Positions 9,636-55,294 of a DNA stretch of 64,000 bases are shown here, one piece after another. The stretch's first letter is position 1, and each line of letters opens with the position of its first letter. The stretch is from Alphaproteobacteria bacterium. GTDB taxonomy: Bacteria; Pseudomonadota; Alphaproteobacteria; Micavibrionales; UBA2020. Location: NCBI GenBank assembly GCA_027483355.1, contig JAIXUW010000292.1, forward strand, positions 222,226 through 286,225, read 5' to 3'. The translations under genes and the position numbers were made by a program. Below the pieces are notes generated by a model. It had not been told where the DNA came from. It made no database searches and saw nothing but the letters and a program-made list of their open reading frames with translations.

Positions 9636-9903
9636 ATACACCTTGTTTATTTCAAGGATGCGTGGCCCAGGACATTGGCAAACACACTTTTTTGTACATA
9701 AAACGATCCAACCGACCTCCGTATGTAAGAATTGCAATATACCACACTGAGATAATAAGCCTCTCTATGGCGATGTAAATCCAAATACGCGCGCGAAAAA
9801 ACTTTTACTGTTGGCTGAGCCCCCTTTATTTCTTCATTTCGCTCGCTTATCTGCTCGCTTCGAACTAATTTGTATTGGTTTTTACGGTACACCGCCTCAA
9901 AAA

Positions 9904-18449: not shown

Positions 18450-18598
18450 GAATAGTATGTGTTTACTAGTATTATGAAAATATTTTACATGGGTAAAAAC
18501 TAGGCGAAAAATAAGTGTGAACTCGCGCGAGGGGTTGTTCCAAAAATGGAAGGTGTACACACACATACACCCCCCGGGGTGGGCGGGCGCGCACGCTT

Positions 18599-22054: not shown

Positions 22055-22104
22055 TTTAGAGCGTTTGAGAAAACCTTTATATACATGAAGAAAACATATT
22101 TTTT

Positions 22105-26040: not shown

Positions 26041-26138
26041 TTCTGGGTATTTTTTCAAACCAAAAAGCCCTTAGTTGTCTCTACGCTAGTGCTTTTCCTT
26101 TCTGAGCCGCGAGAATGCACATTTTTATTATTTACAAG

Positions 26139-27776
26139 TCACGACCGCGCGTATTTTGCCCATTTCTCGATAGGCGTTCTTAGATGAGTGTCAAACAGTT
26201 TTTCATCCAATCTAACCTCGCTTTGCGTGTCGTTTTCGTGCGCCAGATCAGCGCAGCATCGCTTTTGCGCTTGAACTGCAATCTTGTGCAAGTCTTCGAT
26301 ATCCGTAGTCATGCTATGATCCTTTGTGTATGGACATGTGGGAATAAACTGATCTACCACGGTCTCATCCAAAGATTGTTTGATCAGAAAAGAACACGAA
26401 GGCATGGTAGACCTTTCCGGTTTTCTATAGTGCTTGAAATGCGCATCGAATTCAACCCATCTCTGATTAGGCAACGCATTGTACTCGGAGACATTCAAAA
26501 CTCCATTTTGCGCCAAATACGCCATGCCGGGCTCTAAGGCGGGCGCGATTCTGTCCGGCAATGCTCGAGCCAAGAAATGAGCCAAAAATTGACGTCTCGG
26601 ATGCTTGAAATCCTTAAAATCCTGCAAATACTGCGTGACGCATTTCGGGTAGACTGGAGGACGAGCGCCCAGCGATGCCAATTTGGCGCGAACGGCCAGC
26701 TGTCTCTCCTTAGCAGCATTCAGATTGTCGGAAGAATATGCCAGCAACTGGGGCGCGTTTGGGGCAAGTGCTCCCAGCCCAAGAAAGGTGCGCCAGCCTG
26801 CGTTCAGAACGTCAAGGCTTACCAAAGTCGCCGTGACTCTCGGACTCGTACCCTTTAACGTGTATACAGGGTCTAAAATAGTATGATGAAATCGGGGCAC
26901 GTTAATGAACGCTCGAGGATGCTGTTGAACGAGCGCCATTCCGCCTGGCATTTTACCGCTCCAAAACAATCGCAGAATCTTCCACGTGTTCAAGGCTACG
27001 AGTCCCGTGTTGAAAGACAGACTGAACGTTCGTTCTGTGTCCGTTTGAAGTTCTGGCTCGCTTACAATTTTTAACCGCGACTCTTGGCTGCTTGAAAGAC
27101 GCATAAAACTGCCTTCCTTGTCCATACTTCCAAAGAATCGGTGGCTGTCATTCGAGTAACTGGATTTCGACTGCGATTTTGCTGTTTCCTCCACCACTTT
27201 GCTAAATTCTTGTTGTTTTTGAGCTCCGAGCATAGATTTCCACGTTTCTATAATAGTAGACGATGTTTTGGACGAAGGCAAGCTGGCTCGGCGCAGCAAA
27301 TGCTCTTGGAGACTTTGAAGCGGCCCGCGTTCCGTTATCTCGTCGTAAACGCAAGAAACGAATAGGGGCAAGAATTCGAACAAGACTCGACTTATAAATC
27401 TCATGATATTATACATTTGAGTTGACGCCTTGAGGGCAAAAGCCAAATCAATGTCCATTTTCGGCGCCAGCGCCCTTCCATGATCCGGCAGAGAGAATTC
27501 TAACAAAGGCAACTCATTTGTGGAATCACGCGTGATCAAATTCCAAAGATCCGTGCCTTCGTAGCGCCGCGGACATGTTTTGACTTCGGCCAGAAGGTAC
27601 GCCGCGAAATCGTAAATGAAAGAGGCGTTGTTAATGTCGTGTAGAGGAACAGCGCATATGATAAACCACGTAACGCGGTCCAGATTCCACGCTCCCTCTT
27701 TCAGAACGCCCGCGAGGCCGGAATAGAAACTTTCAAACTCTGTTACTAAGCAGTTGTAGAAATACACTGCCGACAT
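26139..27776 (-). CDS. hypothetical protein (545 aa)
   Basis: Long ATG-initiated ORF (MSAVYFYNCLVTEFESFY...), co-oriented with the two giant paralogs. No motif recognised. Confidence 0.7.
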   Translation of the reverse strand: MSAVYFYNCLVTEFESFYSGLAGVLKEGAWNLDRVTWFIICAVPLHDINNASFIYDFAAYLLAEVKTCPRRYEGTDLWNLITRDSTNELPLLEFSLPDHGRALAPKMDIDLAFALKASTQMYNIMRFISRVLFEFLPLFVSCVYDEITERGPLQSLQEHLLRRASLPSSKTSSTIIETWKSMLGAQKQQEFSKVVEETAKSQSKSSYSNDSHRFFGSMDKEGSFMRLSSSQESRLKIVSEPELQTDTERTFSLSFNTGLVALNTWKILRLFWSGKMPGGMALVQQHPRAFINVPRFHHTILDPVYTLKGTSPRVTATLVSLDVLNAGWRTFLGLGALAPNAPQLLAYSSDNLNAAKERQLAVRAKLASLGARPPVYPKCVTQYLQDFKDFKHPRRQFLAHFLARALPDRIAPALEPGMAYLAQNGVLNVSEYNALPNQRWVEFDAHFKHYRKPERSTMPSCSFLIKQSLDETVVDQFIPTCPYTKDHSMTTDIEDLHKIAVQAQKRCCADLAHENDTQSEVRLDEKLFDTHLRTPIEKWAKYARS

Positions 27777-30585: not shown

Positions 30586-30618
30586 GGCTTTTTTATACAC
30601 ACATATATATGTAATAAT

Positions 30619-30654
30619 ACACACACACACACACACACGCACACACACACACAC
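30619..30654. repeat. (AC)n microsatellite
   Basis: acacacacacacacacacgcacacacacacacacac lies between two convergent genes. It generates the spurious ORF 30517..30699. Confidence 0.9.
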
Positions 30655-30676
30655 ATACAAAAACCGGGAAACGCGC

Positions 30677-32665: not shown

Positions 32666-32768
32666 TTATGGAGTGCACTCTCGATAAATCAATAGAAAAA
32701 CGTATGCGCGCGCAAACGACAGAAAAATAGTCAATTGTTTTTATTATTATCGCGCATAGCAAAGTGTG

Positions 32769-37664: not shown

Positions 37665-38651
37665 TCACAACCGGGTTAGATATGTATACAAACGCTCTAC
37701 TAATCCGTCTGCAATAGTAAAATCAAACAGGTTTTTCTCCTCGGCTCCATTTCTCACCTTCTCCATGGCCCGATTGAAATCATACTCATTCATTATGGCC
37801 CACAAAAGTGCCCACATGCATTCGTAGCTTTGCGCTAGAGCGTCCGCGCCAGCCGTATGATCTCTCTGAACGGGAATCAGTTTTTCGTCCAAATAGTTGA
37901 ACTGATGGAGTTTTCCGTTGAGATAAGTATCGTTGACCAATTGGTCATAGTTCAACTCACGAACGCCGTTCCATTTTCCGTCCGTGTTGTAGGGAGGCGA
38001 GTAATACCCGCCCGCGGACATGAAAGAATGCAGTCGCTTGCTGTCCGCCGTAGCCGTGTCGGTCGCCACGATGAATTTGAACTCGGACGAGTTAGGCATA
38101 AAATGTTTTTTCACCTGGTCCATCCATTGGACAAATTGGTCGGCGCTGTTGCGCATGTGGGCGTCAAACTTTTCCTTGTCCACTTTGACGTGACCTTTGG
38201 CTTTCAAACTCTCAAACGCGGCTGGGTTTTTCGCCCAAAACTCAGAAGCCGAAACGGGGAGATCTTCCCATTCCTGGTCGTCCTTTGTGGTGGGAAAAAC
38301 GTCCTCAAACACCAACGGGACATTGTCAGATGCGCTAGGTCTCGCTATGCGTGCATGCAAGAGATCTCCGTCTTCGTCAAAGACAAAAGAGATTTCAAAC
38401 CACGCGGCCCCGAAAGAGGCAAGCGTTTCAGCACCGAACAAGACGGCGGAATCCTTGTCGGCGATTTCACCACGAGCCTCAAAGTCGTACGCGATAACTA
38501 CAAAGGTCTCTGTATAAGTCTTCAAAGGTTCGTCCAACTTGACGCGTTTGGAGGCAGGCTCTTCGAACGGGACGATTTGCGACTGCTCTTCGTAGATAAC
38601 GGGCATCGGCTCGTCCACAATGGCTTGCGAGAATACTTCGGGGTCGGTCAT
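37665..38651 (-). CDS. DEDDh (DnaQ/RNase T-like) 3'-5' exonuclease-like protein
   Basis: ORF 37665..38699 starts on GTG; ATG at 38651 (MTDPEVF...).
- Exo I-like: VVIAYDFEARG (D-x-E).
- Exo II-like: FIVATDTATAD.
- Exo III-like: RDHTAGADALAQSY (H-x4-D-A).
This is motif reading only. The 288-aa antisense ORF 37857..38723 is R/V/G-rich and judged spurious. Confidence 0.5.
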   Translation of the reverse strand: MTDPEVFSQAIVDEPMPVIYEEQSQIVPFEEPASKRVKLDEPLKTYTETFVVIAYDFEARGEIADKDSAVLFGAETLASFGAAWFEISFVFDEDGDLLHARIARPSASDNVPLVFEDVFPTTKDDQEWEDLPVSASEFWAKNPAAFESLKAKGHVKVDKEKFDAHMRNSADQFVQWMDQVKKHFMPNSSEFKFIVATDTATADSKRLHSFMSAGGYYSPPYNTDGKWNGVRELNYDQLVNDTYLNGKLHQFNYLDEKLIPVQRDHTAGADALAQSYECMWALLWAIMNEYDFNRAMEKVRNGAEEKNLFDFTIADGLVERLYTYLTRL

Positions 38652-38812
38652 GTTTTTCTTTTGAACGGGGTGAACAATGGAGTAGCGACTGTAAAACACA
38701 CTGCGGGCGGCTTGAACATATGATCGAAACTGGGAGGGGGCGTCTTACTTTACCAATCAACACAAGGGCCACGAGAGCTGTTCTGCGATCTTTATATGTG
38801 TAAAATACAATC

Positions 38813-40276
38813 TCACTTGTTCATAATCCTTTTAATAGCCGCCATTGCCGCCTTGCACTTGCGAGAATGCTCAATATAGTTTTCCAGATGCCTGCGCAAA
38901 TCCTCGACTTCTCGTGTGGAATCTTTCACATTATCAACAATACTCCTAAGTGCGTCAATCTTCTCCAGCGTAGGCAGAATGTTCAAGCTCTCAGACGCGA
39001 TCACAGCGCCCGCGGTGACAGAAATTTTGGCATTCCTCTTAAAGTAAGTCTCGGTCGACTCGTCGACCTTGATCCTCTTAGGTTGAAACATCTTCTCGAT
39101 CACGTTCTGTTCGGGCGCAGTCTTTCTCTTGCCCGGTTTTCTTCCACGCTTGCCCGTCTCAAACTCGGGCTCCTTGAAATCGATGAAATAGACCGGATTC
39201 GCATTCACCAGGCCGGTCTTGCAGTTAAAGAGAGACAAATGCTCCAAGGAATACACGTTGCATAGAGTGAGTCGACTGCATGCATAATCTTCGAGGTAAA
39301 GCGCGCGTCGGTTCTCGTTGGCAAACGAAGTCTTGCGCTGAATGACATGACTGATAAAATCATGAATCCGCCCTCTCAAAATCGACTCGATCAGTTTGTA
39401 CCGGTACATGAATAGCCCGGCCAACTGGCGATGCAGAGACGTTTTAACGCCGCGCGTTTTCAAATGCGTCACGTAGCCACGCGCTTCAAAATGAGCAAAA
39501 TCGGGAATGCCACGCTCGTCGCGCATGCCCTCGGTGAAATACGTTTCAAGATCGAGACAGAACGGAGCAGCGTGCTCAATGTCGAAATTCTCAGGAATTC
39601 CAAAGACAAAATCGCATGGACTGTATCTTAGCATGAATGCTTGGCGATTGATGGGGTATTTTGCAATATAAGATGTAAAAGAAAGAATGGGCTTGCCCTT
39701 CAAGCCCTCAGGCAAGGCAAATGGTGCCTTTGAAATAGCTTGATTCAGCTTGATAACAAGATCCTTCTCGGCTGCAAGCTCGGAATTGAGATTGGGATCA
39801 AGGGACTCGGATAAATTTTCAAGGGAAGCGAGATCGACACGCGTCAAGGGAGCGGGCGCAGGCGCGGACACAGAACTATCCTCGTCCGACTCGTCGCTCT
39901 CTTCATCATCCGAATCGAATTCATCGGGCTGTTCTTGTCGCCTGGACACAATAGTCTCAAAAGTGGAAAGGTCCGCAAGAACGGATTCCGCGGCACCGGC
40001 GGCGGTGGAGCTTCCAAAGGAGGCATCGGCTAAACTTTCCTCCGACTCCAAACCGTTGGCCTCGGGCGCGTCCTCGAGATCGACTTCAGAACTCTCAGAA
40101 TCACTTTGAAGTTCTTCCATTTGAGTCAGCAAAATGATTTGAGATTCTATAAAGGGCTGCCAGGCGAGCGGGACGGAAGGCTCCGGATCTTGCTCACGCG
40201 GCTCCAAAAGTTCCATATCAAATTTGGAATCAGATGAAGGCAAATTATCGTGAATTTCAAAATCGACAACTTCCAT
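38813..40276 (-). CDS. acidic nuclear-type protein with basic GRKPGKRK patch
   Basis: ORF 38813..40354; ATG at 40276 (MEVVDFEIHDN...). Long Asp/Glu/Ser-rich N-terminal half (DEFDSDDEESDESDEDSS). TGKRGRKPGKRK (AT-hook/NLS-like). C-terminal coiled-coil-like segment. Confidence 0.65.
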   Translation of the reverse strand: MEVVDFEIHDNLPSSDSKFDMELLEPREQDPEPSVPLAWQPFIESQIILLTQMEELQSDSESSEVDLEDAPEANGLESEESLADASFGSSTAAGAAESVLADLSTFETIVSRRQEQPDEFDSDDEESDESDEDSSVSAPAPAPLTRVDLASLENLSESLDPNLNSELAAEKDLVIKLNQAISKAPFALPEGLKGKPILSFTSYIAKYPINRQAFMLRYSPCDFVFGIPENFDIEHAAPFCLDLETYFTEGMRDERGIPDFAHFEARGYVTHLKTRGVKTSLHRQLAGLFMYRYKLIESILRGRIHDFISHVIQRKTSFANENRRALYLEDYACSRLTLCNVYSLEHLSLFNCKTGLVNANPVYFIDFKEPEFETGKRGRKPGKRKTAPEQNVIEKMFQPKRIKVDESTETYFKRNAKISVTAGAVIASESLNILPTLEKIDALRSIVDNVKDSTREVEDLRRHLENYIEHSRKCKAAMAAIKRIMNK

Positions 40277-40653
40277 TTTCCGGGCACGGGAGCGGTACGG
40301 GAACCGGAAACAAAAAAAAACTGGGCCGAACACAAAACACTGTGTGTTAGACACCGCAAAACCGACCAGCGCGTTCGAATGTTATCAAAAAGACGTACAA
40401 TACAATGTTCTAAAGAATAGACAGCTCAAAATCGAGGAGACGCGATGAATTGAAATTAACCAAGCGCCATTTTTCTGCTGTTGTCCAAACTTGCGCGCAA
40501 TTTCCCCCCTTTTGTCGACCCCCTATCGCCAACCCACATGTTTTTACAAATCATTTATATCCAAATATGTACACAAATCGATAGAACATCGAGAACTCGA
40601 TATAATACACTGAGTGGGATGAGAGGAGGAATTACAAAATGTAAACCAAGAGC

Positions 40654-42030
40654 TCAGGTCGCTATCTTTTTCGAACTCGGTTCTAGCATGTCATCATCGC
40701 CCTTAATAGAAGGTCTAATCTTACGCTTTGGAGGTCTAAACTTGAAAGGTATCCACTCGCCTCTGTGATTGGGTTGCTCCAAGTGCCGCCGCAAGTGCAT
40801 TTTGTCAAATTCAGAGCAGTACATCACTTGGCACACGGCCTCGGTCAACGAGAAGGGTCTAATGAGTCCAATATCAAACATGTACTCGCAGCTCAGCGTG
40901 ACAATGTTGGACAAATACTCGGCCTTTTTCTTGTGACCCTCGGTCATCGCTTGATGTTTTGGGTCGTAGCATACCACAAATCCGCTAAAGGGAACAATGA
41001 AGCGGTTCAAATACGCCGTTGCCAAATCCGAAAAGAATTCGTCCAAGTTATAGTCCACGCACTCTGCGTTTTGAGAGTACATAATCGCTTTGACGCTTCT
41101 AGCTATGGTCAGTAAATCACGCATGGGACAATGGACTTGACGTGCCGAATCGGCTGTGTAGACAATGTAGGAGCTCCCGATTCCGCCAGTCCAGTTCCGG
41201 AACTCGGCGCACCCAAAATCCACAATTTTCCACTCGTAAATGCCAAAACTGTTCAGTTTCAAAAGTACGTTACCCGTATGAAGATCGTTGTGTAGAATTC
41301 CAATCTTGTTCATCTTGTCAATGCATCGTATGAGTGAATTGGCGGCCGCGGGGCTCCGCAAAAAGCAACCCATGGATATCGACTGTTCGCAAGTAGGTAA
41401 ATCGGCGATCATTTTCATGCAGTGATAGAGAGACGTGCCAGCGTGGTCCATGACTATGCAAAAGGCCCGACCGCGAATAATAGTGTTCTCGTTGGTTGAA
41501 CTAAGCCCAAAGGAGTCGACAGTGAACATGGCGTAGATCTTTGGCCCTATTCCGTGATCGCCCGCGATCTTTCCGATTTTATGCTCTGCCTCCAGTTCTT
41601 CTAAAAACAGTTTAAATCGTTCGCAATAGGGAATCTCCGCATGGGTCTTAAAATGAGACGATGAAAAATTGACAATCTTCATGGCGTACGAGGCCGTTTC
41701 CGTTTTATCCGACCTGGCATATACGCTATAAATCGCACTGGCGGGGCCGGAACCCAATTTCTCGCACCAATTCGGATTCTGTGGATGCTTTGCGAATTCG
41801 TAGCCGGCCTCGCGGACTTGTGACCGGGAAACGCAAATGCGCGGGCGCTGACTGCCGCTTGATATTTCGCACCACTCATTTTTGTTGTATTTGTAACGAT
41901 GGTAGATGTCAGTTTCTTTAGGAGCCGACGGAGACGAAGACGACAATGAAGAAGAAGATGAACGAGAAGCGTCGTTTGTGGGTGGCAGCACAGGAGTACG
42001 AGCGCACTCGGCACTTGTTTCCTCGGCCAT
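40654..42030 (-). CDS. Ser/Thr protein kinase
   Basis: ORF 40654..42045 starts on TTG; ATG at 42030 (MAEETSAE...). Subdomain II YAMKIV, catalytic loop HNDLHTGNVLL (HxD...N), and DFGCAEF (DFG). Ser-rich N-terminus. Confidence 0.85.
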   Translation of the reverse strand: MAEETSAECARTPVLPPTNDASRSSSSSLSSSSPSAPKETDIYHRYKYNKNEWCEISSGSQRPRICVSRSQVREAGYEFAKHPQNPNWCEKLGSGPASAIYSVYARSDKTETASYAMKIVNFSSSHFKTHAEIPYCERFKLFLEELEAEHKIGKIAGDHGIGPKIYAMFTVDSFGLSSTNENTIIRGRAFCIVMDHAGTSLYHCMKMIADLPTCEQSISMGCFLRSPAAANSLIRCIDKMNKIGILHNDLHTGNVLLKLNSFGIYEWKIVDFGCAEFRNWTGGIGSSYIVYTADSARQVHCPMRDLLTIARSVKAIMYSQNAECVDYNLDEFFSDLATAYLNRFIVPFSGFVVCYDPKHQAMTEGHKKKAEYLSNIVTLSCEYMFDIGLIRPFSLTEAVCQVMYCSEFDKMHLRRHLEQPNHRGEWIPFKFRPPKRKIRPSIKGDDDMLEPSSKKIAT

Positions 42031-42059
42031 TCTAACAGATCCCAAAAATAGTGTAGGTG

Positions 42060-42296
42060 TTAGAGAACAATGTAGAAAATTTGATATCGAAGAAAGAGCA
42101 CAGGCCTAGATGGGTAAAGGCAAAAAACGATGCCGACAAGAGCCAGTGAATGCAAATAATATGACACTGTGAAGAATGTGATTATTGAACAAGAATAAAT
42201 GCTCCAATGCCAAGTAGCAAATCGCTGTGGAATGAGGCTGCCCGGAACAGCAGGCAAAGTGACGACGGAATGAGAGGGAGAAAGGGGTTTGGTCAT
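42060..42296 (-). CDS. possible small hydrophobic protein (78 aa)
   Basis: ATG ORF whose stop lies 30 nt upstream of the kinase start, which is typical spacing here. It contains IYSCSIITFFTVSYYLHSLALVGIVFCLY. There is no other support. Confidence 0.25.
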   Translation of the reverse strand: MTKPLSPSHSVVTLPAVPGSLIPQRFATWHWSIYSCSIITFFTVSYYLHSLALVGIVFCLYPSRPVLFLRYQIFYIVL

Positions 42297-42910
42297 GCGA
42301 AAATCCGAGATATATCAAAAGCGTGGATTGGAAGAAAAAAGAGGCACATGTGCCACATCAAACCAATATGATATTCGATGAATTGAATAACGTAAAGCAA
42401 CGTAGCATTCCAATGAAAAGAGGTTGGGCGGCTCACCGCGAATTTCCGACAATCTGCATATCTTACATTATTATCACATGAGTAGTATGTATATACATTT
42501 GGATAAAATGGATTCAGTAAACGCCTACGTTCCTTATAAACGCCAAATCAGTATTTTTTTCGCGAACTAGAATTCAACGTTTACGCAGTTGATAACGGCC
42601 ATGTAAAATGGCTTGAATGACTTAATATTGCCAAAAATTTGTGGGCGTCAAATCAAGTGACAAAGAGCAGCACAAACTTTACACTGAATTGACTGTGGCG
42701 GCAACCTTGGCTCAGTTCAAGGTAAAGCAGGTGCGCTCAATGTGCTTGCGACGATCTCAAAACCTTGTATACTAAAGTATAGTCTTTTGTAGCCGTTTAA
42801 AACGCCGCCGTCGTACCCCCGCCCCACCTTTCTTTTCCGCGTTACCTACAATTGCGCCGGCACTGAAAAAGGGCTTTTACCGTTTATATACACATGACTA
42901 CTCTCAGACG

Positions 42911-43099
42911 TCATTTGCCAGTCGGAACTGGACGCATAGAACCGTTCATCCATTGCCGCGTTATTCCGTATAGTTCGGCTTCTTTTTTCGTAATAGTTCC
43001 AACGGCAGCCAGGTCATTCATCCAATCAGATGAAGAAGGGGCCTGTTTTTGGGGCGGTTTCGCGTCATCGCGGGCCGGTTCAGCGGGTTTGCCAGACAT
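42911..43099 (-). CDS. possible small hydrophilic protein (62 aa)
   Basis: ATG ORF (MSGKPAEPARDDAKPPQKQAPSSSDWMNDLAAVGTITKKEAELYGITRQWMNG...). Its composition is more protein-like than the overlapping plus-strand ORF 42894..43103. No other support. Confidence 0.3.
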   Translation of the reverse strand: MSGKPAEPARDDAKPPQKQAPSSSDWMNDLAAVGTITKKEAELYGITRQWMNGSMRPVPTGK

Positions 43100-43275
43100 T
43101 TGAATAAAGATGGTATTTGCACAAGAAATTGGGATATGCTAGACTTTTTGTATCGCTAGAGACGTCCGAAAACAACTCCCCCTTCTTGTAAGCCACTTTC
43201 TTAAAACCGTTTCTTGGATTTTTCTCGCCAAATCATTTTTGGTAATTTGTGTACATTTTACTAATACACAAAAGC

Positions 43276-45356
43276 ATGGGGGCTCAAACCCCATTTTCGG
43301 CCGTCGCTGTTTTTTTTGAATCTCTGCCGGAAGAACTCAAATTGACTGTGCGTTAAAACCCATTGCTTCTAAAACGTGTTCTGGCACTGACTCTTTGTTT
43401 TACGTATCTAGATCTTCTTCCTTTTGCCGTTTCGCAGTTTGAAAGCAGCGAGATTGGTCTGTAAAAAGTACGGTTCTATGCGCAAAAGTGCCAAACAAAG
43501 CCGTTGTTTTTTTTGTGACCTTGCACCTCGTATAGATGGTATCGAATTTCAATCGATCAAAGAATTTGGAAAAACTTGCATGAAAGATTCTTCGGGATAC
43601 CTCATTTCCCGCTGTACTCGACACACGACTTGGCGGAACAGCCCAAAAGCGTACCCAAAGCTGGCGCGAATACGTCGACGTTTCCTTCCAGCCCTCCCAT
43701 CATCTCATCTTCTGTGGAACCAAAACATGTTTTTTCATACGAGCCCGGCACGGACCGCGAGACGATTTTTCGTCGGTTGCATCGTGAATACAAACGCGTG
43801 AACAATCTCCAAGAGCGGTTGCTTTGGGCTATCGAAGGCCATTATTTTGAGCTTACAAAGCGGCTTGTGGAGAAAAAGGGCGCCGTGATCGAACGCGACA
43901 AGCCCAAAATGAGCTACGGTGCTCTGTACGCCGCTGCGAAAATTGGATGCGGACAGATCACAGCTTATTTGATTAATAAGGGCGCTAATATAAATGCATT
44001 GGCGGATGACAAATCGACACCGTTGTACATCGCGGCACAGAACGGGTGTATTGACTCTTTGAAATTGCTCATCAACGCCGGCGCTTCACTGGAGTGTGTT
44101 TTCAAGTACGTTTTCAAATTTTCATGTAAATATGCGATCTAACACGACTTTTGCACCGATAGTGATGGCTACACACCCCTCTACATTGCGTCCCAAACAA
44201 ATCGGGTGGAAGCCGTTCGACTTTTAGTCGACGCCAAAGCAAAAATCAATGCTTGTTGCTCTCAAGGTTCCACGCCTTTGTATATCGCCGCTCAACAGGG
44301 CCATTTGGAAGTCGCAAAGGTTTTAGTGTCCGCCGGCGCTAACATTGAATCCAAATTCAAAACGGGGTTTACTCCAATCTATGTCGCATCAAGAAACAGC
44401 CATTCGGCGATTGTAGAGTATTTGATTGAAAAAGGAGCGTCGGTCAACGCCAGTGACGGTGACGGATCGACGCCTCTTTACGTGGCATCCCAAAAGTGCG
44501 GTTTTGCGATTTTTATTCCAAACTACAATTGCATTATTCTAACAAACGTGTAAGCGCAGTGGCAGCATAGAATGTGTGCGGGTACTGCTTCAACACGGAG
44601 CTGATCACAGAATCGCCTTCATGAATGGATTCGCTCCGCTTTATATTGCTAGCCAAAATGGACACGCGGAAATTGTAGATCTTTTGTGCAAATCAGGCTC
44701 AGAGGTGAACCGCGTTGCGGACAACGACTTGACAGCGTTATACGTGGCCTGTCAAAACGGGCATGTCGGGGCTGTCGCGCGGCTGCTCAGCCACGGAGCC
44801 AATGCAGATGTTGTGTTCGACGCGGGTTATAGGCCACTTTACATTGCTTCCCAGAAGAACCATGTCGAAATCGTGGAATTGCTTGTCTCGCATGGCGCGC
44901 CTATCAACGCAGTCACGGGCAAGAAGGCAACCGCGTTATATGTTGCATGTCAAAAGGGCAATTTTCAAATTGTCAAATATCTTTTGGAACATGGAGCGGA
45001 TCCAGCGTTGCGGTTTCAAGTACGTTTTCGACGCCGCACTCCGGTTCTTTTTTACTTTCCATAATATCCAACACCTTATTTTCCCCTAGAACGGATTTAC
45101 ATGTCTGCATATTGCCGCGCAAGAAGGCAACGAAAGAGTAGTCGAGTATTTGCTAGAAAACACGAAAATCAACCCTTCAACAAAGTCGAATGATCAGAGA
45201 ATGGCAGCAGAAGTGGCAAAAAAGGCGACTATAACAAAAATAATCAGGGAGAAAATTGAGCAAATGTATACAAAGCCGGCACCCCATCCTGTGCAAACGC
45301 AGGCACTACAAAAACCTCGGTGCATGTGCCGAGAGTGTGTAGTCAGACGGTCTTAG
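43276..45356 (+). CDS. F-box + ankyrin-repeat protein, multi-exon (about 594 aa)
   Basis: Proposed exons are 43276..43347, 43412..43650, 43692..44105, 44163..44495, 44560..45019 and 45090..45356, totalling 1785 nt in frame.
- Exons 1+2 give MGAQTPFSAVAVFFESLPEELKLT|IFFLLPFRSLKAARLVCKKY, a canonical F-box.
- Later exons give about 11 ANK repeats (TPLYIAAQNGH..VV..LL..GA).
- Splicing restores the repeat register at every junction.
- The ORF-track pieces 43576, 44206, 44576 and 45150 all start on TTG/GTG, not ATG.
- The exon 2/3 junction is tentative. Confidence 0.75.
43348..43411 (+). other. spliceosomal-type intron (64 nt)
   Basis: GTGCGT...cactgactc (CTGAC about 20 nt from the 3' end)...TCTAG. 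It removes an in-frame TAA and joins the two halves of the F-box in phase 0. Confidence 0.7.
43651..43691 (+). other. candidate very short intron (41 nt, tentative)
   Basis: A frame change from the 43424 frame to the 43576 frame is required between about 43600 and 43700. GTACCC...tttccttccag gives the right phase. The alternative 43614..43660 (47 nt) also fits, so this is not resolved. Confidence 0.3.
44106..44162 (+). other. spliceosomal-type intron (57 nt)
   Basis: GTACGT...tctaacac...gatAG. It joins ...LECVF + N + DGYTPLYIASQ across a split AA|T codon. Confidence 0.8.
44496..44559 (+). other. spliceosomal-type intron (64 nt)
   Basis: GTGCGG...ttctaacaaac...gcgCAG. It joins ...TPLYVASQ + N + GSIECVRVLLQHGAD. 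Confidence 0.8.
45020..45089 (+). other. spliceosomal-type intron (70 nt)
   Basis: GTACGT...atccaacacc...ttttcccctAG (good polypyrimidine tract). It joins ...GADPALRFQ|NGFTCLHIAAQEGN in phase 0. Confidence 0.8.
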
Positions 45357-45372
45357 ACACATTGTAAACAAA

Positions 45373-46353
45373 ATGGATGCTGTTGTTCTTATTACATTGC
45401 TAGAAACAATTGATTTTGCTGCTAAAAAGCACTCCAAGCAACGCAGAAAGAACGCCGATGCCTCGCCCTACATCGGCACGCCCTCTTTGCATTTTTTTCG
45501 CGCGCGTGTATGACACAGCAACGCCTAACACTTTTATGTTCAAACACAGAGCATCCGATTGGCGTTGCCAAATTGCTGGCAGCGGTTGGTGGTGTCACCG
45601 ACATTTCTACGCTCCAAGCCGGCGTATTACACGATACGCTTGAAGACACGGACACTACATTTCAAGAATTGCAGTCCAAGTTTGGCGAGAAAGTGGCCAA
45701 AATTGTGCGGGAAGTACGTACTTTGAGTTTGGCGTTGCCAAGAACGCTAAGAACGGCTCGTTTTCAGGCCCTTGTTTCTTACAAATCCCACACAGGTTAC
45801 CGACGACAAGAGTCTGCCCAAAGACGAACGCAAGAGACTTCAGATCTCACATGCTCCTCATATGTCGACCGAGGCCAAGCTCGTAAAGCTCGCCGACAAG
45901 CTGCACAATCTTCAATCCCTTCAGATCGAGTCTCCTGCTTTATGGTCTAAATCTCGTATTCAAGGATACTTTGCGTGGGCGCACGCTGTCGTCGCTGGTC
46001 TTCGAGGCACAAATCTTTGGCTCGAATCCGCGTTGAAGCAAGTTTTCTCTGGATCGTTCAAGTGCAAAGAGGGCATGTTTCCTACTTTGCCCGAAAACAC
46101 AGAGGCTGCTCTCGAAAATTATCTCAAGGAAATGAAAGAAGTGGATCAGACGGAGAAAGCGCCAAAAATTGTGGGCATCGTCGTTGGTAACATGTGCTTA
46201 AAAACAAAGCCGTGCCAGCATGTTGTTGAAATGGTTTTTGCCGACGGTCGCAGAGAGAAAAAGCGCATGGACGCCGCTGATGTCGCTTTGGCCTTCAAGA
46301 ACGCAAACCTGACGATTCCCGATCATTTTGTAAACGATGTAGCTCACTTTTGA
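45373..46353 (+). CDS. MESH1/HDDC3-like HD-domain hydrolase ((p)ppGpp-hydrolase/small-alarmone-hydrolase fold) with extra C-terminal ~60-aa domain, 3 exons
   Basis: Exon 1 is MDAVVLITLLETIDFAAKKHSKQRRKNADASPYI.... Exon 2 is HPIGVAKLLAAVGGVTDISTLQAGVLHDTLEDTDTTFQELQSKFGEKVAKIVRE. Exon 3 is VTDDKSLPKDERKRLQISHAPHMSTEAKLVKLADKLHNL.... The order matches metazoan MESH1 as I recall it: (DFAA.KH..QRRK....PYI.HP.GVA, LLHDT.EDT, EVTDDK.LPK.ERKR.Q, KLVKLADKL.NL). The C-terminal 46165..46329 is an added domain. Confidence 0.8.
45506..45549 (+). other. first intron of the HD-hydrolase gene (boundaries ambiguous: 45506..45549 GT-AG, or 45476..45549 GC-AG)
   Basis: The acceptor aaacaCAG|AG is preceded by gcctaacac. 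The only in-phase GT donor (GTGTAT at 45506) leaves a 10-aa insertion (GTPSLHFFRA) inside the conserved PYI.HP motif. A GC donor at 45476 would give PYIEHPIGVA, matching the family motif. Confidence 0.5.
45714..45795 (+). other. spliceosomal-type intron (82 nt)
   Basis: GTACGT...cttac...cacaCAG. It joins KIVRE|VTDDKSLPKDERKRLQ in phase 0 and restores the conserved EVTDDK motif. Confidence 0.85.
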
Positions 46354-46457
46354 TAAAATGCGGAAGATGCAACCGCTGTCCCCCTAAACTGGCAAGTGAA
46401 AAAAAAGTGGTCAGTTTCGCGCCTCTCAATAGAGTCAGTTCTCAAGTTTTGTCTAAA

Positions 46458-47027
46458 ATGCTACGCCAATTGTCCATATTCTTTATCAATCTATCATACG
46501 TGTGCTCGTATGCGCCCATTTTCATCATACCAGTCTTGCAACTGGGTCTGCCGTACGCTGCGCCGCTTCTGGCGCACTTTTTGCTTCGCTTGGACTTGTG
46601 GACTATATTCATGGCTCATTTCGCAGTGAATATCATGCTCGGCGTTATCTTTGGCGTGTGGGTGTTCTACCTTATGAACGGTTGTTGGGAGAAGCACGAG
46701 AGGGAGCTCCAGCGAGAGAGCTGGTGTCCCAAATCCTGCGTTCATCCGCGCAGAGTGGACCATTTTGCAGTCACCCGATTCTTTTTCATGTGGACGTGGG
46801 TGTTATTCACAATCTCACTCTCTTCGCTTGCAAACTTTGCCACCACAGTCGTGTTGGACAACATGTACAGTAACGCGACAGAAAACAGAGTCGGCGGCTA
46901 TGCTGCCCTCGCTTTTCTCGCGCCGTTTGCCATGTTAGTATCAAGAGGTGTGCTGGAAATGGGTCTGTGTATTTACGAGATGGATTTTGCACGCGAAGTG
47001 TGTGACGAAGACAAAGTTGTGAAATAA
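46458..47027 (+). CDS. multi-pass membrane protein (189 aa)
   Basis: ORF 46350..47027 starts on TTG overlapping the preceding stop; ATG at 46458 (MLRQLSIFFINLSYVCSYAPIFIIPVL...). At least four hydrophobic segments. No motif recognised. Confidence 0.6.
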   Translation: MLRQLSIFFINLSYVCSYAPIFIIPVLQLGLPYAAPLLAHFLLRLDLWTIFMAHFAVNIMLGVIFGVWVFYLMNGCWEKHERELQRESWCPKSCVHPRRVDHFAVTRFFFMWTWVLFTISLSSLANFATTVVLDNMYSNATENRVGGYAALAFLAPFAMLVSRGVLEMGLCIYEMDFAREVCDEDKVVK

Positions 47028-47119
47028 ACGATTTACAGACACCCCACAGTTTTTCGAGTGGATGACGCGGCACTAGAGTTCTTGTTCGACCCAGTCGCTT
47101 ATTTTTCGCCGCGTGAAAC

Positions 47120-47350
47120 ATGGAACCGAGAAAAGTAGCCCAAATCATACCCAGTGAACTGTGCCGTTCAACTTTTCCGTGCCTACATTCGGTTAAAATT
47201 GTCTTCCAAGACGGAACTGTGGAAACCAAAACAATGGATGGCAACGACATTGCTCAACTCTACCTTAATGCAAACATACAAGTCCCCGCGCACTTTGCCA
47301 TGTATATATCGTCTCCAACGTTTAGTGCAAGCGGTCTCTCTAAACACTAA
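47120..47350 (+). CDS. small protein (76 aa) homologous to the C-terminal domain of the HD hydrolase
   Basis: MEPRKVAQIIPSELCRSTFPCLHSVKIVFQDGTVETKTMDGNDIAQLYLNANIQVPAHF aligns with KIVGIVVGNMCLKTKPCQHVVEMVFADGRREKKRMDAADVALAFKNANLTIPDHF. About 24 of 55 positions are identical by my manual alignment. Confidence 0.55.
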   Translation: MEPRKVAQIIPSELCRSTFPCLHSVKIVFQDGTVETKTMDGNDIAQLYLNANIQVPAHFAMYISSPTFSASGLSKH

Positions 47351-47376
47351 CAATAAACTCTTATGTGCTCGAAAAT

Positions 47377-47448
47377 GCCGGCGTGGTTCAATTGGTAGAA
47401 TACCTGGTTGTGGCTCAGGCGACGATGGTTCGATTCCACCCGCTGGCA
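47377..47448 (+). tRNA. tRNA-His (anticodon GTG)
   Basis: Manual cloverleaf:
- acceptor gccggcg/cgctggc (one G-U)
- D arm gttc-aattggta-gaat
- anticodon arm cctgg-ttGTGgc-tcagg
- 4-nt variable region
- T arm gatgg-ttcgatt-ccacc (one A-C mismatch, B-box GGTTCGATTCC)
- discriminator A
There is no encoded G-1 or CCA, which is the eukaryote style. Confidence 0.7.
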
Positions 47449-47453
47449 TTGCG

Positions 47454-47530
47454 GACGGCTTAGCTCAGGTGGGATAGTGCTTCATCACGCGCGTATGGGG
47501 AGGTCGCTGGTTCGACCCCAGCAGCTGTCG
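47454..47530 (+). tRNA. tRNA-like gene with abnormal 11-nt anticodon loop (isotype undetermined)
   Basis: Manual fold:
- acceptor gacggct/agctgtc (one G-U)
- U8-A9
- D arm gctc-aggtggga-tagt (3 bp)
- anticodon stem cttca/tgggg (5 bp, two G-U)
- loop tcacgcgcgta (11 nt, contains the palindrome ACGCGCGT)
- variable region aggtc
- perfect T arm gctgg-ttcgacc-ccagc
It starts 5 nt after tRNA-His and is followed by a T5 run. Confidence 0.5.
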
Positions 47531-47535
47531 TGGTC

Positions 47536-47540
47536 TTTTT
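47536..47540 (+). terminator. T5 run, candidate RNA polymerase III terminator for the tRNA pair
   Basis: TTTTT lies 6 nt after the tRNA-like gene, and there is no T-run between the two tRNAs. Confidence 0.4.
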
Positions 47541-47571
47541 ATCCTTTTCCCCCTTTGTTTGTTTATTACAG

Positions 47572-48324
47572 TCAATGTACAATCTCTTGTGTACGTGTGT
47601 CACGCACGCGCGCGCATTTTTTAAGAGCCGCGATAAACAGAATAGGATCGTCCGAATGTTGCATTTGAGTTTTCACAAAATCAACGTTTGAAACTACTTT
47701 TACAAAGCACGAATCTGTGAACTTGCCGCTCGCTTTGAAGGTTTTTCTCAGCAGCTCGGTGTGCTCCGGACGCCATGTATCGACCGAAAAGGCGGGTATG
47801 CCCATCGACAGACGACCTTCGATAGTGACAGGCCAAAACCGCCATGTAGATCGCGGATCGCATCTCATCACAATCCATTCGACGGAACTCTCGCATCGAC
47901 ACCGCGGGCGATTCTTTTTTGGGTCAATGTCATTACACGTGTGAAACGGAATCTTGATTTTTCTATCGGCGTTAGGTTGAACAGAAGCGCTAGTTCTACG
48001 AGGAGTAGTTTTACCTCGCTTTGATTCATAACCGCCTCGGCGTATAGCGCACATTGTGCAATATCCTCCGTTTGATTCCAAGTGAATAACAGGGAAGTAA
48101 ACATAGTTTTGACAGAGTTTGCACATTGCCACGGGCTCAGCAGGCATTTCAGTAACTGGGTCCTTTTGTACCATTGCGTGGCACGAATGTCGTGGATTGG
48201 TTTGATCGTAAGGCGGATCTACTCTTGACATTTGGTTTACTTTGCTGTTTTGTGTTTTAAACGACTGACATACCGCATGGACCACAGATGTCAAAAAAAC
48301 ACGATTTGTGTACGGGGAGGTCAT
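47572..48324 (-). CDS. hypothetical Cys-rich (zinc-ribbon-like) protein
   Basis: 250-aa ATG ORF, with an alternative ATG at 48231 (MSRVDPPYDQ). CKLCQNYVYFPVIHLESNGGYCTMC (CxxC...CxxC) and RCRCESSVEWIVMRC. Its first codons overlap the tRNA 3'-half copy at 48314..48346. Confidence 0.55.
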   Translation of the reverse strand: MTSPYTNRVFLTSVVHAVCQSFKTQNSKVNQMSRVDPPYDQTNPRHSCHAMVQKDPVTEMPAEPVAMCKLCQNYVYFPVIHLESNGGYCTMCAIRRGGYESKRGKTTPRRTSASVQPNADRKIKIPFHTCNDIDPKKNRPRCRCESSVEWIVMRCDPRSTWRFWPVTIEGRLSMGIPAFSVDTWRPEHTELLRKTFKASGKFTDSCFVKVVSNVDFVKTQMQHSDDPILFIAALKKCARVRDTRTQEIVH

Positions 48325-48346
48325 TGGTTCGAGTCCGCAAGCTGTC
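48314..48346 (+). other. orphan copy of a tRNA 3' half (variable region + T arm + 3' acceptor strand)
   Basis: ggggaggtcattggttcgagtccgcaagctgtc versus ggggaggtcgctggttcgaccccagcagctgtc (47497..47529): 26 of 33 identical by manual alignment. The B-box GGTTCGAGTCC is kept but T-stem pairing is lost, and no matching 5' half lies upstream. Confidence 0.55.
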
Positions 48347-48435
48347 TTTGCATTTCCGAACGTTGTTTATTTGTCGTTCATCACTCGCAACACGCATTTA
48401 CATTTTTTTCTATTGTTTTGAAAACAAGCGTTAGA

Positions 48436-48795
48436 ATGGACACTCTACTATGGAACTACGTCTGCCGATGGCAGAACGAGAGTTTGTCCGGAAACACAAC
48501 AGAAACGCTCAAGTTCAAGCACAAGAACCGCAAGGGCACTGTTCAACTGAAATGGTGGAAACAGAGAAGTATGCTCATTATCAAAGCCGTGGAAATGGAC
48601 ACGGGAGTGTCCCACACCAAGGGCGAGTTCACACAGGCTTGCCGCGATGTTTTACTCTCTCATAGCGACGTGATTAAATGCGTCAGAATGGAGTCTGTCT
48701 CATCGGGCGGATACGCTGAATATTTGAAGGCACAAGGATGGACCGTGGCCGGGCCTTTTTACACAGGAATGAACGCCGATTTATGTGTACAATAA
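48436..48795 (+). CDS. hypothetical protein (119 aa)
   Basis: ORF 48232..48795; first plausible ATG at 48436 (MDTLLWNYVCRWQNESL...), downstream of the divergent gene start. No motif recognised. Confidence 0.5.
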   Translation: MDTLLWNYVCRWQNESLSGNTTETLKFKHKNRKGTVQLKWWKQRSMLIIKAVEMDTGVSHTKGEFTQACRDVLLSHSDVIKCVRMESVSSGGYAEYLKAQGWTVAGPFYTGMNADLCVQ

Positions 48796-48806
48796 TACAG
48801 AAAAGA

Positions 48807-48983
48807 TCAATGAGTGACCTCCAATACGGCCATGCGATCATACAAATTGCGGATTCGATAATCGATTAGCTTGCGTTCGGCGTCGCTCGACGTTCTGGAC
48901 TTTTTTTGTTCAAGCGCTCTCACTTCTCTCTGCAGTTGTTCAATCATTCTTCCTTGCCAATTGTCGCTACTGGGAGAAGACAT
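48807..48983 (-). CDS. possible small coiled-coil protein (58 aa, below the ORF-track cutoff)
   Basis: My translation is MSSPSSDNWQGRMIEQLQREVRALEQKKSRTSSDAERKLIDYRIRNLYDRMAVLEVTH*. It fills an otherwise empty spacer and converges on 48436..48795. Confidence 0.35.
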   Translation of the reverse strand: MSSPSSDNWQGRMIEQLQREVRALEQKKSRTSSDAERKLIDYRIRNLYDRMAVLEVTH

Positions 48984-49163
48984 TTTTGTTCTATAAAGTC
49001 AATCTTGCGATTTTTTGCACTGGCAAACCACGAAGAGCACAGTTCAAGTGAAAAAAACTTTCCTTTTGGGGGTGCTTTGTGAACGCGCGAGCTCTGCGGC
49101 CGAAAATCGGAGTTTCCATGTGCTGGCCGATTATTTTTAGAATTGATTCACATAAATACGCGA

Positions 49164-49294
49164 AATAACGCAACGTAACGCAGCGCGACGCAACGCGGCG
49201 CACCAGCGCGCAAAGGACCGCAGCGCAGCGCAACGCAACGCGACGCACCGCAACCCACCGCAGCGCAGCGCGACGCACCGCAGCGCAACGCAGC
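49164..49294. repeat. degenerate pentanucleotide array (CGCAR/CGCGA/CGCAC)n, about 26 units
   Basis: cgcaa cgtaa cgcag cgcga cgcaa cgcgg cgcac ... cgcag cgcaa cgcag, with strict 5-nt phasing visible across thirteen 10-nt blocks. It lies in the divergent spacer between 48983(-) and 49394(+). It creates three spurious overlapping minus-strand ORFs (AALRC-type). Confidence 0.85.
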
Positions 49295-49393
49295 TCTTGA
49301 AATTCCCTTGCCGTTTATATTTAACAAACAATAAATCCATAATAATACGACAAATACATTCTCAATATTAAGTCTAAAACGTTTCTGCAAAAT

Positions 49394-50062
49394 ATGGATT
49401 TAGAAGAGAGCAAACCACGAAAGAAAAGACCGCTGCCGTATATTGCATCGGGTACTTTTGACCTTTTGGACAATATATTCGAACCAAATCCAAATCTCAA
49501 AAATACATCTAAGCGCGCAAAACATAACCCTGCAACGGCTGTGACGCTCAGTGTCCCAACTCGCTCGACCGTGATACATCGATTCGGAAAGGCAAAAGCG
49601 GTCGCATTCGTCAAATCTGATATTTTGGGGTTCTCCGAACAAGACATTCAACTATCTTTGCATTGGGCGGAGTCGGACACGACGGAGCTCGGAAAATGGT
49701 ACACAGGTTTATCTGCTGCCAACTTTGCGCCCAAAAGTTTGGAAATGACTTCCAACACCAACGAAATGGAGATATATTACACTATCCCCAAATCGTATGA
49801 ACCCAGAGTGGCACAGGAAGTCCGGCAAAATCTATTAGTGCCCGGAACCAAGGTAACCGCGTTTTTAAAAGCGAATCAACAAGAATTTTCATTTGTGATA
49901 TCTCGTTTGCAACAATCGACCGCGCAACGGCAGCACAGCGGAGTTATGTTTATACTCGCCGCGGAATCTTCCGGAAACGTGTCCGCCCAGCCCGCCAACT
50001 TCTTTAAAAAGCCGGCACCCAGACGTGAAATACGTAAAAATGCGTTTGGAATCCATTTATAA
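49394..50062 (+). CDS. hypothetical protein with N-terminal NLS-like SKPRKKRP
   Basis: 222-aa ATG ORF (MDLEESKPRKKRPLPY...). No other motif recognised. Confidence 0.6.
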   Translation: MDLEESKPRKKRPLPYIASGTFDLLDNIFEPNPNLKNTSKRAKHNPATAVTLSVPTRSTVIHRFGKAKAVAFVKSDILGFSEQDIQLSLHWAESDTTELGKWYTGLSAANFAPKSLEMTSNTNEMEIYYTIPKSYEPRVAQEVRQNLLVPGTKVTAFLKANQQEFSFVISRLQQSTAQRQHSGVMFILAAESSGNVSAQPANFFKKPAPRREIRKNAFGIHL

Positions 50063-51080: not shown

Positions 51081-51115
51081 GCTCTCGCGCGTATTTTTTG
51101 TTCTATCATGTAAAA

Positions 51116-52417: not shown

Positions 52418-52792
52418 ATGGAGAATCCAATGTCCGCGAGCGAGAAAACGCAACGTTTGCTGGCTGCGCTAGTGCAACAGAACGCGGTTATCCTAAAAGA
52501 GTTTGGAAAAATCGCAGTGACCATGTCACGCATGTGCAAGAAAGTGGATGCTTATATTGCGACAACAGCGACAAAGGAGATGGAGAGGCGTTTTTCCGAC
52601 GCTGCCACCGACGACTGTGCGGTAACTAAGACTCGTGCCAGTGAGCTTGCGCCGCCGCCCATTTCATCCAACATGACACGACAATTGAGTCGGTTGACGG
52701 AACTTGCTAATTATGAAGAAAATTTGGATATTGCGCGCGCGTATGATGCGCAGCCACTCAGTGATCTTGTCTCAAACCTGGGTACGCTCTGA
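52418..52792 (+). CDS. hypothetical protein (124 aa)
   Basis: ATG ORF (MENPMSASEKTQRLLAALVQQNAVILKEF...), predicted helical. No motif recognised. Confidence 0.5.
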   Translation: MENPMSASEKTQRLLAALVQQNAVILKEFGKIAVTMSRMCKKVDAYIATTATKEMERRFSDAATDDCAVTKTRASELAPPPISSNMTRQLSRLTELANYEENLDIARAYDAQPLSDLVSNLGTL

Positions 52793-55118: not shown

Positions 55119-55294
55119 GTGTGGCGCAAAATTTTTTTTTCAAGAGTGCCGTGTGTAAAATTAAAAATGAAGTTAAAACGAGCACGTTTCGTTGGTCGTG
55201 AAAAAGGGGAGCATCAATTGGATTATACTCTTTCTGTGCGCGCGCGGTTTTTTTTTGTATTAGACCTGCCAAAGTGAGCCAAAAGATATAACGA

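Follow-up and report, generated by a model that had tools for sequence, protein, structure and literature searches.

In Schizosaccharomyces pombe and hemiascomycetes, tRNA genes can stand in tandem with spacers that are as short as 3 nucleotides (nt) and contain no terminator, one T run lying behind the second gene; the promoter of the upstream gene drives RNA polymerase III (Pol III) transcription, and the ordinary tRNA enzymes process the precursor (PMC2566860). The same processing is expected of other tRNA-led dicistrons (tRNA-5S, tRNA-RUF70, and tRNA-snoRNA), and tRNA-miRNA dicistrons are cited in the same work (PMC2566860). Here, we describe a pair of this shape in a 64,000-nt stretch of contig JAIXUW010000292.1 (assembly GCA_027483355.1, deposited as an Alphaproteobacteria bacterium; positions 222,226 to 286,225), hereafter the window, from whose first letter all coordinates are counted. 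The pair consists of tRNA-His(GTG) (47377-47448) and, 5 nt further on, a 77-nt tRNA-like gene that we call X (47454-47530), both on the plus strand. The anticodon loop of X measures 11 nt. We consider it probable that X is a non-decoding, rearranged or pseudogenized tRNA copy that is co-transcribed with tRNA-His and whose loop is the scar of a breakpoint or of slippage.

Several other systems invite comparison. Murid gammaherpesvirus 68 (MHV-68) carries Pol III-type tRNA-like genes (TMERs) in a nuclear DNA virus genome, and their products, the vtRNAs, are processed and CCA-tailed but not aminoacylated. When prokaryotic integrative elements and the archaeal SSV1 enter a tRNA gene, they create a second copy of about its 3′ half, spanning the anticodon loop through the 3′ end. 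Pseudogenes and "undetermined" tRNAs in the tRNA arrays of viruses and phages resemble X in that a full cloverleaf with an aberrant anticodon loop lies beside intact tRNAs. Natural expanded-anticodon tRNAs retain U33. Yeast mitochondrial tRNA-Thr1, Vischeria tRNA-X, and +1 frameshift suppressors have in common with our gene a cloverleaf that is normal apart from an anticodon loop exceeding 7 nt (PMC4824035; PMC4267643). Finally, tRNA genes of the Guillardia theta nucleomorph contain insertions, namely atypical introns that are short and in which a defined bulge-helix-bulge motif is missing (PMC3978253).

A tRNA-shaped gene behind tRNA-His

The upstream member of the pair is an ordinary tRNA gene by both Rfam (RF00005, 58.1 bits) and ARAGORN. 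With A73, a T at position -1, and G-1 left unencoded, it is a tRNA-His of the eukaryotic type. Its B box, GGTTCGATTCC, matches the consensus perfectly, and an approximate A box, TGGTTCAATTGG, was read by eye. The spacer to X is TTGCG (47449-47453). Downstream of X, the trailer TGGTC leads into a T5 run (47536-47540; trailer and run together, 47531-47540, plus strand) that begins 5 nt past the X discriminator and has the form of a Pol III terminator for the pair; no run of four or more T residues occurs within the pair itself. Since the 5-nt spacer is free of T runs, tRNA-His and X appear to form one transcription unit. This is the layout of a dicistronic Pol III tRNA gene: a short T-free spacer, a single T run after the second unit, and A and B boxes in the first. 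By analogy with the tandem genes of yeasts, Pol III would co-transcribe the two, and transcription in a host nucleus is plausible because a MESH1-like gene 1.7 kb away contains an 82-nt GT-AG intron. Unlike the yeast-type pairs, the one described here has a downstream unit that would be unable to decode, its setting appears virus-like, and its co-transcription is a prediction. The first-pass annotation had presented a dimeric unit made of tRNA-His, a 5-nt gap, a second cloverleaf, and a T5 run; all its statements on the sequence hold, and the T5-terminated dimer is a sound reading.

X has the body of a tRNA. The acceptor stem (GACGGCT/AGCTGTC) forms seven of seven pairs, including G4.U69, and the T arm (GCTGG-TTCGACC-CCAGC) is perfect, with five of five stem pairs and a perfect B box. 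The variable region reads AGGTC, the discriminator is G73, and the D arm and the bases engaged in tertiary contacts are intact (U8-A9, A14, G15/C48, G18 G19, G26/A44, and U54 U55 C56 A58). In all, 21 of the 22 stem pairs are sound, with a single C13.U22 mismatch. The anticodon stem (CTTCA/TGGGG) closes the 11-nt loop TCACGCGCGTA (47485-47495), which has C at position 33 in place of U33 and lacks a purine at position 37; a canonical tRNA would have 7 nt here, with both of these bases. The description of the acceptor stem, U8-A9, variable region, T arm, and loop given at first pass was thus accurate throughout. Within the loop sits the palindrome ACGCGCGT (47487-47494), an 8-nt sequence that is not enriched in the window (2 matches versus 1.64 expected).

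X is above chance as a tRNA-like gene. A search with the Rfam tRNA model, as proposed at first pass, scored X at 31.1 bits, above the gathering score of 29, with E values of 8.9e-5 when 351 nt were searched and 6.8e-4 when 2.7 kb were searched; a run on the whole window missed X, presumably through the filter stage. The alignment covers the full model, with 7 loop positions replaced by 11 inserted bases. ARAGORN returned two adjoining genes in this region, tRNA-His(gtg) and "tRNA-??? (cgcg)", the latter labeled "tRNA-?(Ala|Arg)(cgcg)". An independently assembled Logan contig (SRR16126875) is identical base for base across 47151-49022, so the 4 extra loop nucleotides are not an error of one assembly. 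Thermodynamic folding of X, tRNA-His, and the dimer was uninformative, giving non-cloverleaf minimum-energy structures with weak z-scores. The long hairpin through the palindrome that had been suggested at first pass can form, with a GCGC tetraloop, in the isolated anticodon arm, but it is weak (-2.9 kcal/mol, z = -0.55).

The acceptor stems of tRNA-His and X have five of seven pairs in common, among them the rare G4.U69, and the two differing pairs, 2:71 and 7:66, are altered on both strands with pairing preserved. On sequence comparison, the shared pairs hint at common ancestry of, or gene conversion between, the two genes. A simple origin of X as a diverged duplicate of tRNA-His was considered and rejected: the two genes resemble each other in the acceptor and T arms and show no such resemblance in the D and anticodon arms.

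A degenerate half copy beyond the neighboring gene

A second, incomplete version of X lies 817 bp downstream on the same strand. This element, X-prime (48310-48346; GTACGGGGAGGTCATTGGTTCGAGTCCGCAAGCTGTC), reproduces the 3′ half of X as an orphan and emerged as a direct repeat (D3, spacing 817) and in Smith-Waterman alignment, where it matches positions 47493-47529 (GTATGGGGAGGTCGCTGGTTCGACCCCAGCAGCTGTC) with a score of 37 versus a shuffle mean of 12.4; none of 2,000 shuffles scored as high. The homology begins at the final 3 nt of the anticodon loop and extends through the end of the acceptor strand, i.e., the 3′ end of the tRNA. There is no similarity to the left of the GTA that opens it (p = 0.63) or in the downstream flanks (p = 0.15), and the region upstream of X-prime holds no counterpart of tRNA-His and the X 5′ half (p = 0.79); with none of these alignment tests significant, an extension of the homology into the 5′ half or the flanks of X was rejected.

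X-prime is clearly decayed. It differs from X by about seven events in 37 nt (∼76% identity), and although its B box is kept, two T-stem pairs and the complement of pair 31:39 are lost, damage of which X is free. The Rfam tRNA model does not recognize it as a tRNA. The first-pass annotation, correct on the dimer, had overlooked this half copy, which would connect the odd loop of X with the breakpoint of a rearrangement. Five matches to the B-box consensus GGTTCRANNCC lie in the window versus 1.26 expected, and three of these are the plus-strand boxes of tRNA-His (47427), X (47509), and X-prime (48326), which flank the gene described next. The remaining two, at 14792 and 17393 on the minus strand, fall inside the open reading frame (ORF) 14466-18602, which encodes an RCC1/kelch-domain product, and are probably due to chance.

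The sole gene between X and X-prime is P0013 (47572-48231, minus strand), an ORFan that encodes a Cys-rich protein of 219 amino acids when M32, the conserved start, is taken as its first residue; the ORF as called mechanically extends to 48324. P0013 gave no usable match in Pfam or PHROG, and its AlphaFold2 model was unusable (pLDDT 39.5). A deep profile search among 1.84 billion representatives retrieved, beyond the cluster of P0013 itself, one distant relative without a Pfam domain.

Sequence type of the loop insert

The X loop belongs to an alternating purine-pyrimidine tract of 12 nt, CACGCGCGTATG (47486-47497). A longer tract, TGTGTACGTGTGT-CACGCACGCGCGCGCAT (47588-47617, unstranded), lies 58 nt downstream of X and is of the same sequence type as the loop insert. 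Alternating tracts of at least 12 nt number 30 in the window, the X loop among them, and many lie in gaps between genes. CGCGCGC is about ninefold enriched in intergenic over coding DNA, and CGCGCGTAT occurs five times versus 0.64 expected, a count reached in none of 100 shuffles; CGCGCG overall is at chance (26 matches versus 28.9 expected). Because of the intergenic enrichment of these tracts and of CGCGCGC, the loop insert appears to be of a sequence type that this genome generates in its non-coding DNA.

Further examples of intergenic tracts are at 9785-9795, 26146-26154, 32700-32714, 45499-45512, 47601-47617, 51086-51094, 52732-52745, and 55235-55246. They often adjoin A/T runs, and one, of the form (CG)nGTATG, borders directly on the ATG of the 45510 gene; they may represent a promoter, terminator, or Z-DNA-type signal. 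A degenerate tandem array of (A/G)CGCA-like units with a period of ∼5 to 10 nt occupies 49157-49314, in the 1-kb gap upstream of the ORF at 49394, and positions 30617-30659 form a long (CA)n tract.

A rearranged, non-decoding tRNA copy as the preferred reading

The most economical account of the locus is the remnant of a small rearranged tRNA array, in which tRNA-His is intact, X is damaged in its loop, and X-prime is a decaying orphan. Host Pol III, recruited by the A and B boxes, would produce a single precursor that comprises tRNA-His, the TTGCG spacer, and X and ends at the T5 run. RNase P, tRNase Z, and the CCA enzyme recognize tRNA features that are intact in X. RNase P and tRNase Z would release both units, because the acceptor-T minihelix and the elbow are intact in each; judging from what is known of these enzymes, X is probably excised as a tRNA-shaped RNA. 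tRNA-His would then gain G-1 and CCA and serve translation. The RNA from X would be unable to present a triplet to the ribosome, since an 11-nt loop without U33 cannot form the U-turn. Recombination at the anticodon loop, or an insertion there, would have caused the lesion itself, and slippage of a CG repeat may have contributed, given that the repeated 3′ half of X ends in the loop and that the loop matches the CG/CA tracts of this genome.

If this reading is true, the event was an ordinary one: tRNA arrays of large viruses turn over, and X would have been caught after the loss of its loop and before the decay of its body. An intact tRNA, a loop-damaged tRNA, and an orphan 3′ half bracketing one gene form the pattern expected from recombination at the anticodon loop; we know of no description of such a three-part pattern in eukaryotic viruses. 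In practical terms, annotators should neither number genes like X, reported as "tRNA-???" or "undetermined", among the decoders nor take them to indicate recoding.

A number of observations sit uneasily with simple pseudogenization. The X body is flawless in its elbow bases and in all but one stem pair, while X-prime has decayed, which suggests that X is under continued structural constraint or that its lesion is recent. At least three changes fall within 7 to 11 loop nucleotides and none elsewhere in the gene; such confinement is unlike slow neutral decay and calls for one complex (recent) event or for selection. A breakpoint would land in the loop by chance at about 11 of 77 positions (∼14%), and the link between scar and breakpoint, as drawn from the alignment, is suggestive, not proven. 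The 64 kb inspected are part of a 292-kb genome.

Alternative explanations

With its body intact where X-prime has decayed, X may have kept a role other than decoding, and the main rival holds that X is a maintained tRNA-like RNA or DNA element. We regard this as rather unlikely. X could help its neighbor by giving tRNA-His a strong A/B-box promoter, a processing handle for RNase P and tRNase Z, and a terminator, or it could be released as a free tRNA-shaped regulatory or decoy RNA, as the MHV-68 vtRNAs are thought to be. The perfect acceptor stem, T arm, and elbow, the two acceptor pairs changed on both sides with pairing kept, the restriction of changes to the loop, and the clustering of B boxes at tRNA-His, X, and X-prime all agree with maintenance. 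A recent lesion in a once-functional tRNA would, however, yield the same pattern, and the absence of X from every related locus available gives no sign of long-term retention. Nor is a helper needed in the described tandem tRNA genes, where the upstream promoter suffices (PMC2566860). The vtRNA is the nearest viral analogue that we can name for a non-aminoacylated tRNA-like product, but pre-miRNA hairpins follow the tRNA-like part of the TMERs, whereas between X and its T5 run there are only the 5 nt of TGGTC and no hairpin of the pre-miRNA type; moreover, X follows a genuine tRNA, and no sequence relationship to the TMERs was found. A bolder proposal, which we hold to be quite unlikely, is that X, P0013, and X-prime are the footprint of a small mobile cassette that targeted a tRNA anticodon loop in a eukaryotic-type viral genome, X being the imperfectly reconstituted gene on the attL side, retained because its tRNA-shaped body still serves tRNA-His production or acts as a tRNA-like RNA. 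The arrangement does resemble the attachment-site (att) duplication left by integration into tRNA genes: X is complete on one side, X-prime is an orphan 3′ half in direct orientation on the other, and the boundaries of the repeat, as expected of attL and attR, both coincide with tRNA landmarks, the anticodon loop and the 3′ end. It departs from that model in that the two copies enclose only ∼780 bp with one ORFan, are ∼76% identical rather than nearly identical, and belong to a genome of eukaryotic type; no recombinase or integrase was recognized between them, P0013 having been searched against Pfam, PHROG, and deep profiles. If true, this would be a eukaryotic-virus analogue of prokaryotic tRNA-gene integration.

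Other explanations stay closer to the loop. CG slippage, put forward at first pass as one possible origin, fails as the sole cause, because no 7-nt ancestor derived in this way is canonical. The corresponding rival, that X is an ordinary tRNA (e.g., Arg-ACG) recently inactivated by (CG)n slippage without recombination and that X-prime is an unrelated truncated paralogue, is very unlikely in our view. The loop does read TCA(CG)3TA, CG tracts expand in the non-coding DNA of this genome, ARAGORN names Ala or Arg, and the G1-A2-C3 start and G73 discriminator resemble those of eukaryotic Arg tRNAs. Yet removal of two CG units leaves TCACGTA, still non-canonical with C33 and U37, so that extra substitutions are needed; the X-prime boundary coincides with the loop, and comparison of the X body with 185 tRNAs from the fetched loci gave no isotype signal. 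A functional tRNA with a micro-intron is highly improbable. The earlier statement that no reading provides U33 is true as long as the 5-bp stem is kept: removing any contiguous 4 nt results in C33 together with a pyrimidine at 37, and a 6-bp stem with a 9-nt loop places A or G at 33. It fails only when A31-U39 is opened to give a 4-bp stem, whereupon excision of CGCGCG yields AUCAUAU and excision of 6 nt (CGCGUA) exactly at 37/38 yields AUCACGU, with U33, G37, and the anticodon CAC. Such a rescue appears unlikely because it costs nucleotide 26 or one anticodon-stem pair, demands a 4-nt variable loop, and conflicts with the register of the 5-bp stem, with which the Rfam alignment and the G26/A44 and G15/C48 contacts agree. 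The G. theta introns lend the idea a precedent, but their removal restores canonical tRNAs, and on a standard 5-bp stem no excision from X, at 37/38 or elsewhere, leaves a canonical 7-nt loop. Furthermore, 11 nt cannot form a bulge-helix-bulge or an anticodon-intron helix, and the intron mode of ARAGORN offered no model. Least credible of all is an expanded-anticodon tRNA of the quadruplet or frameshift-suppressor type, to which the 4-base anticodon cgcg reported by ARAGORN points. The alternative fold behind it, with the 8-nt loop CG-CGCG-UA, requires two mismatches, A.G in the anticodon stem and U:U in the D stem, together with two connector nucleotides, and it has G33 instead of U33; the preferred fold has 11 loop nucleotides, whereas the natural cases have 8-nt loops with a usable anticodon (PMC4824035). 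No recoding signal is known in this genome. Of the four candidates listed at first pass, the pseudo-tRNA and the tRNA-like structural RNA therefore survive, and the tiny intron and the expanded anticodon are disfavored.

Genes called "tRNA-???" by ARAGORN with 4-base anticodons were also seen in two loci retrieved with the D-arm pattern of tRNA-His, L038 (8029-8103) and L020 (1419-1491), which are unrelated tRNA arrays, probably of phages. The L038 gene has an 8-nt loop (CT-GCGC-AC) that keeps U33, in contrast to the 11-nt loop of X, which lacks U33 and has a half copy nearby.

Genomic setting and related loci

The window is dense in ORFs, with a GC content of 45 to 51%. Most of its products have no Pfam match, and the exceptions are eukaryote-style: RCC1/kelch, subtilase, kinase, dual-specificity phosphatase, SINA RING, DUF285, and HD. 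The HD-domain gene (45510-46353, plus strand) is the MESH1/HDDC3-like gene mentioned above, interrupted at 45714-45795 by its GT-AG intron (GTACGT...CAG). In a gapless alignment, its spliced product matches human HDDC3 (3NR1) at E = 2.6e-48. Read from the sequence, the intron indicates that this ORFan-rich genome is expressed in a nucleus with the help of the spliceosome, and the window probably represents a large DNA virus or virus-like element of a eukaryote.

Public data contained matches to ten tested window products only on one NCBI contig (292,368 bp) and in one Logan run. A search with the subtilase led to two relatives at ∼45 to 67% amino acid identity, L003 (ENA ERZ7462356 NODE_8, 208 kb) and L004 (Logan SRR11430616); a search with the kinase returned only the query itself. 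L003 is syntenic with the window from the subtilase through the kinase to a homologue of the ORF at 49394. Between these last two, the genomes diverge (window 38000-50000 versus L003 1-5200): the window has ankyrin-like ORFs, the MESH1-like gene, a membrane-protein ORF, the tRNAs, and P0013, and in L003 their place is taken by a different gene set, among it a PP2C phosphatase and small ORFs, with no tRNA in the syntenic interval; the searches brought up no closer relative. Homologues of P0013 (loci L005-L009) at 52 to 59% identity occur in NCBI assemblies GCA_006365035.1 and GCA_006365135.1 and in Logan runs; no match was found in IMG/VR with the P0013 alignment. Neither a tRNA nor a half-tRNA stands beside these homologues or in the subtilase-relative loci (L003 and L004), so the comparison with orthologous loci advised at first pass found no ortholog of X among the related loci available.

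Pattern searches gave a similar picture. No match was obtained with the X D arm, flexible loop, and T arm in IMG/VR, with an acceptor-anchored X pattern in JGI metagenomes and IMG/VR, or with the tRNA-His anticodon arm in IMG/VR. The T arm of X alone matched eight phage tRNAs of five isotypes in IMG/VR, which was uninformative, and the tRNA-His D arm matched 27 metagenomic loci, mostly tRNA arrays of phage or bacterial type and none of them close. As far as public data show, the tRNA-His/X pair thus appears to be lineage specific.

Some further features of the window deserve mention. Two translated ORFs, 430 bp apart on the plus strand (43576-44142 and 44576-45064), contain ankyrin-like repeats discerned by eye and look like exons of one split gene or parts of a disrupted gene. 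On the minus strand, 14466-26058 holds three very large ORFs arranged head to tail with 4-nt overlaps, encoding proteins of 1378 (kelch and RCC1), 1169, and 1317 amino acids, the latter two without a Pfam match. L003 and L004 both retain the ORF at 26139-27776, and in each of them the large gene called beside it is probably the counterpart of the 1317-amino-acid ORF.

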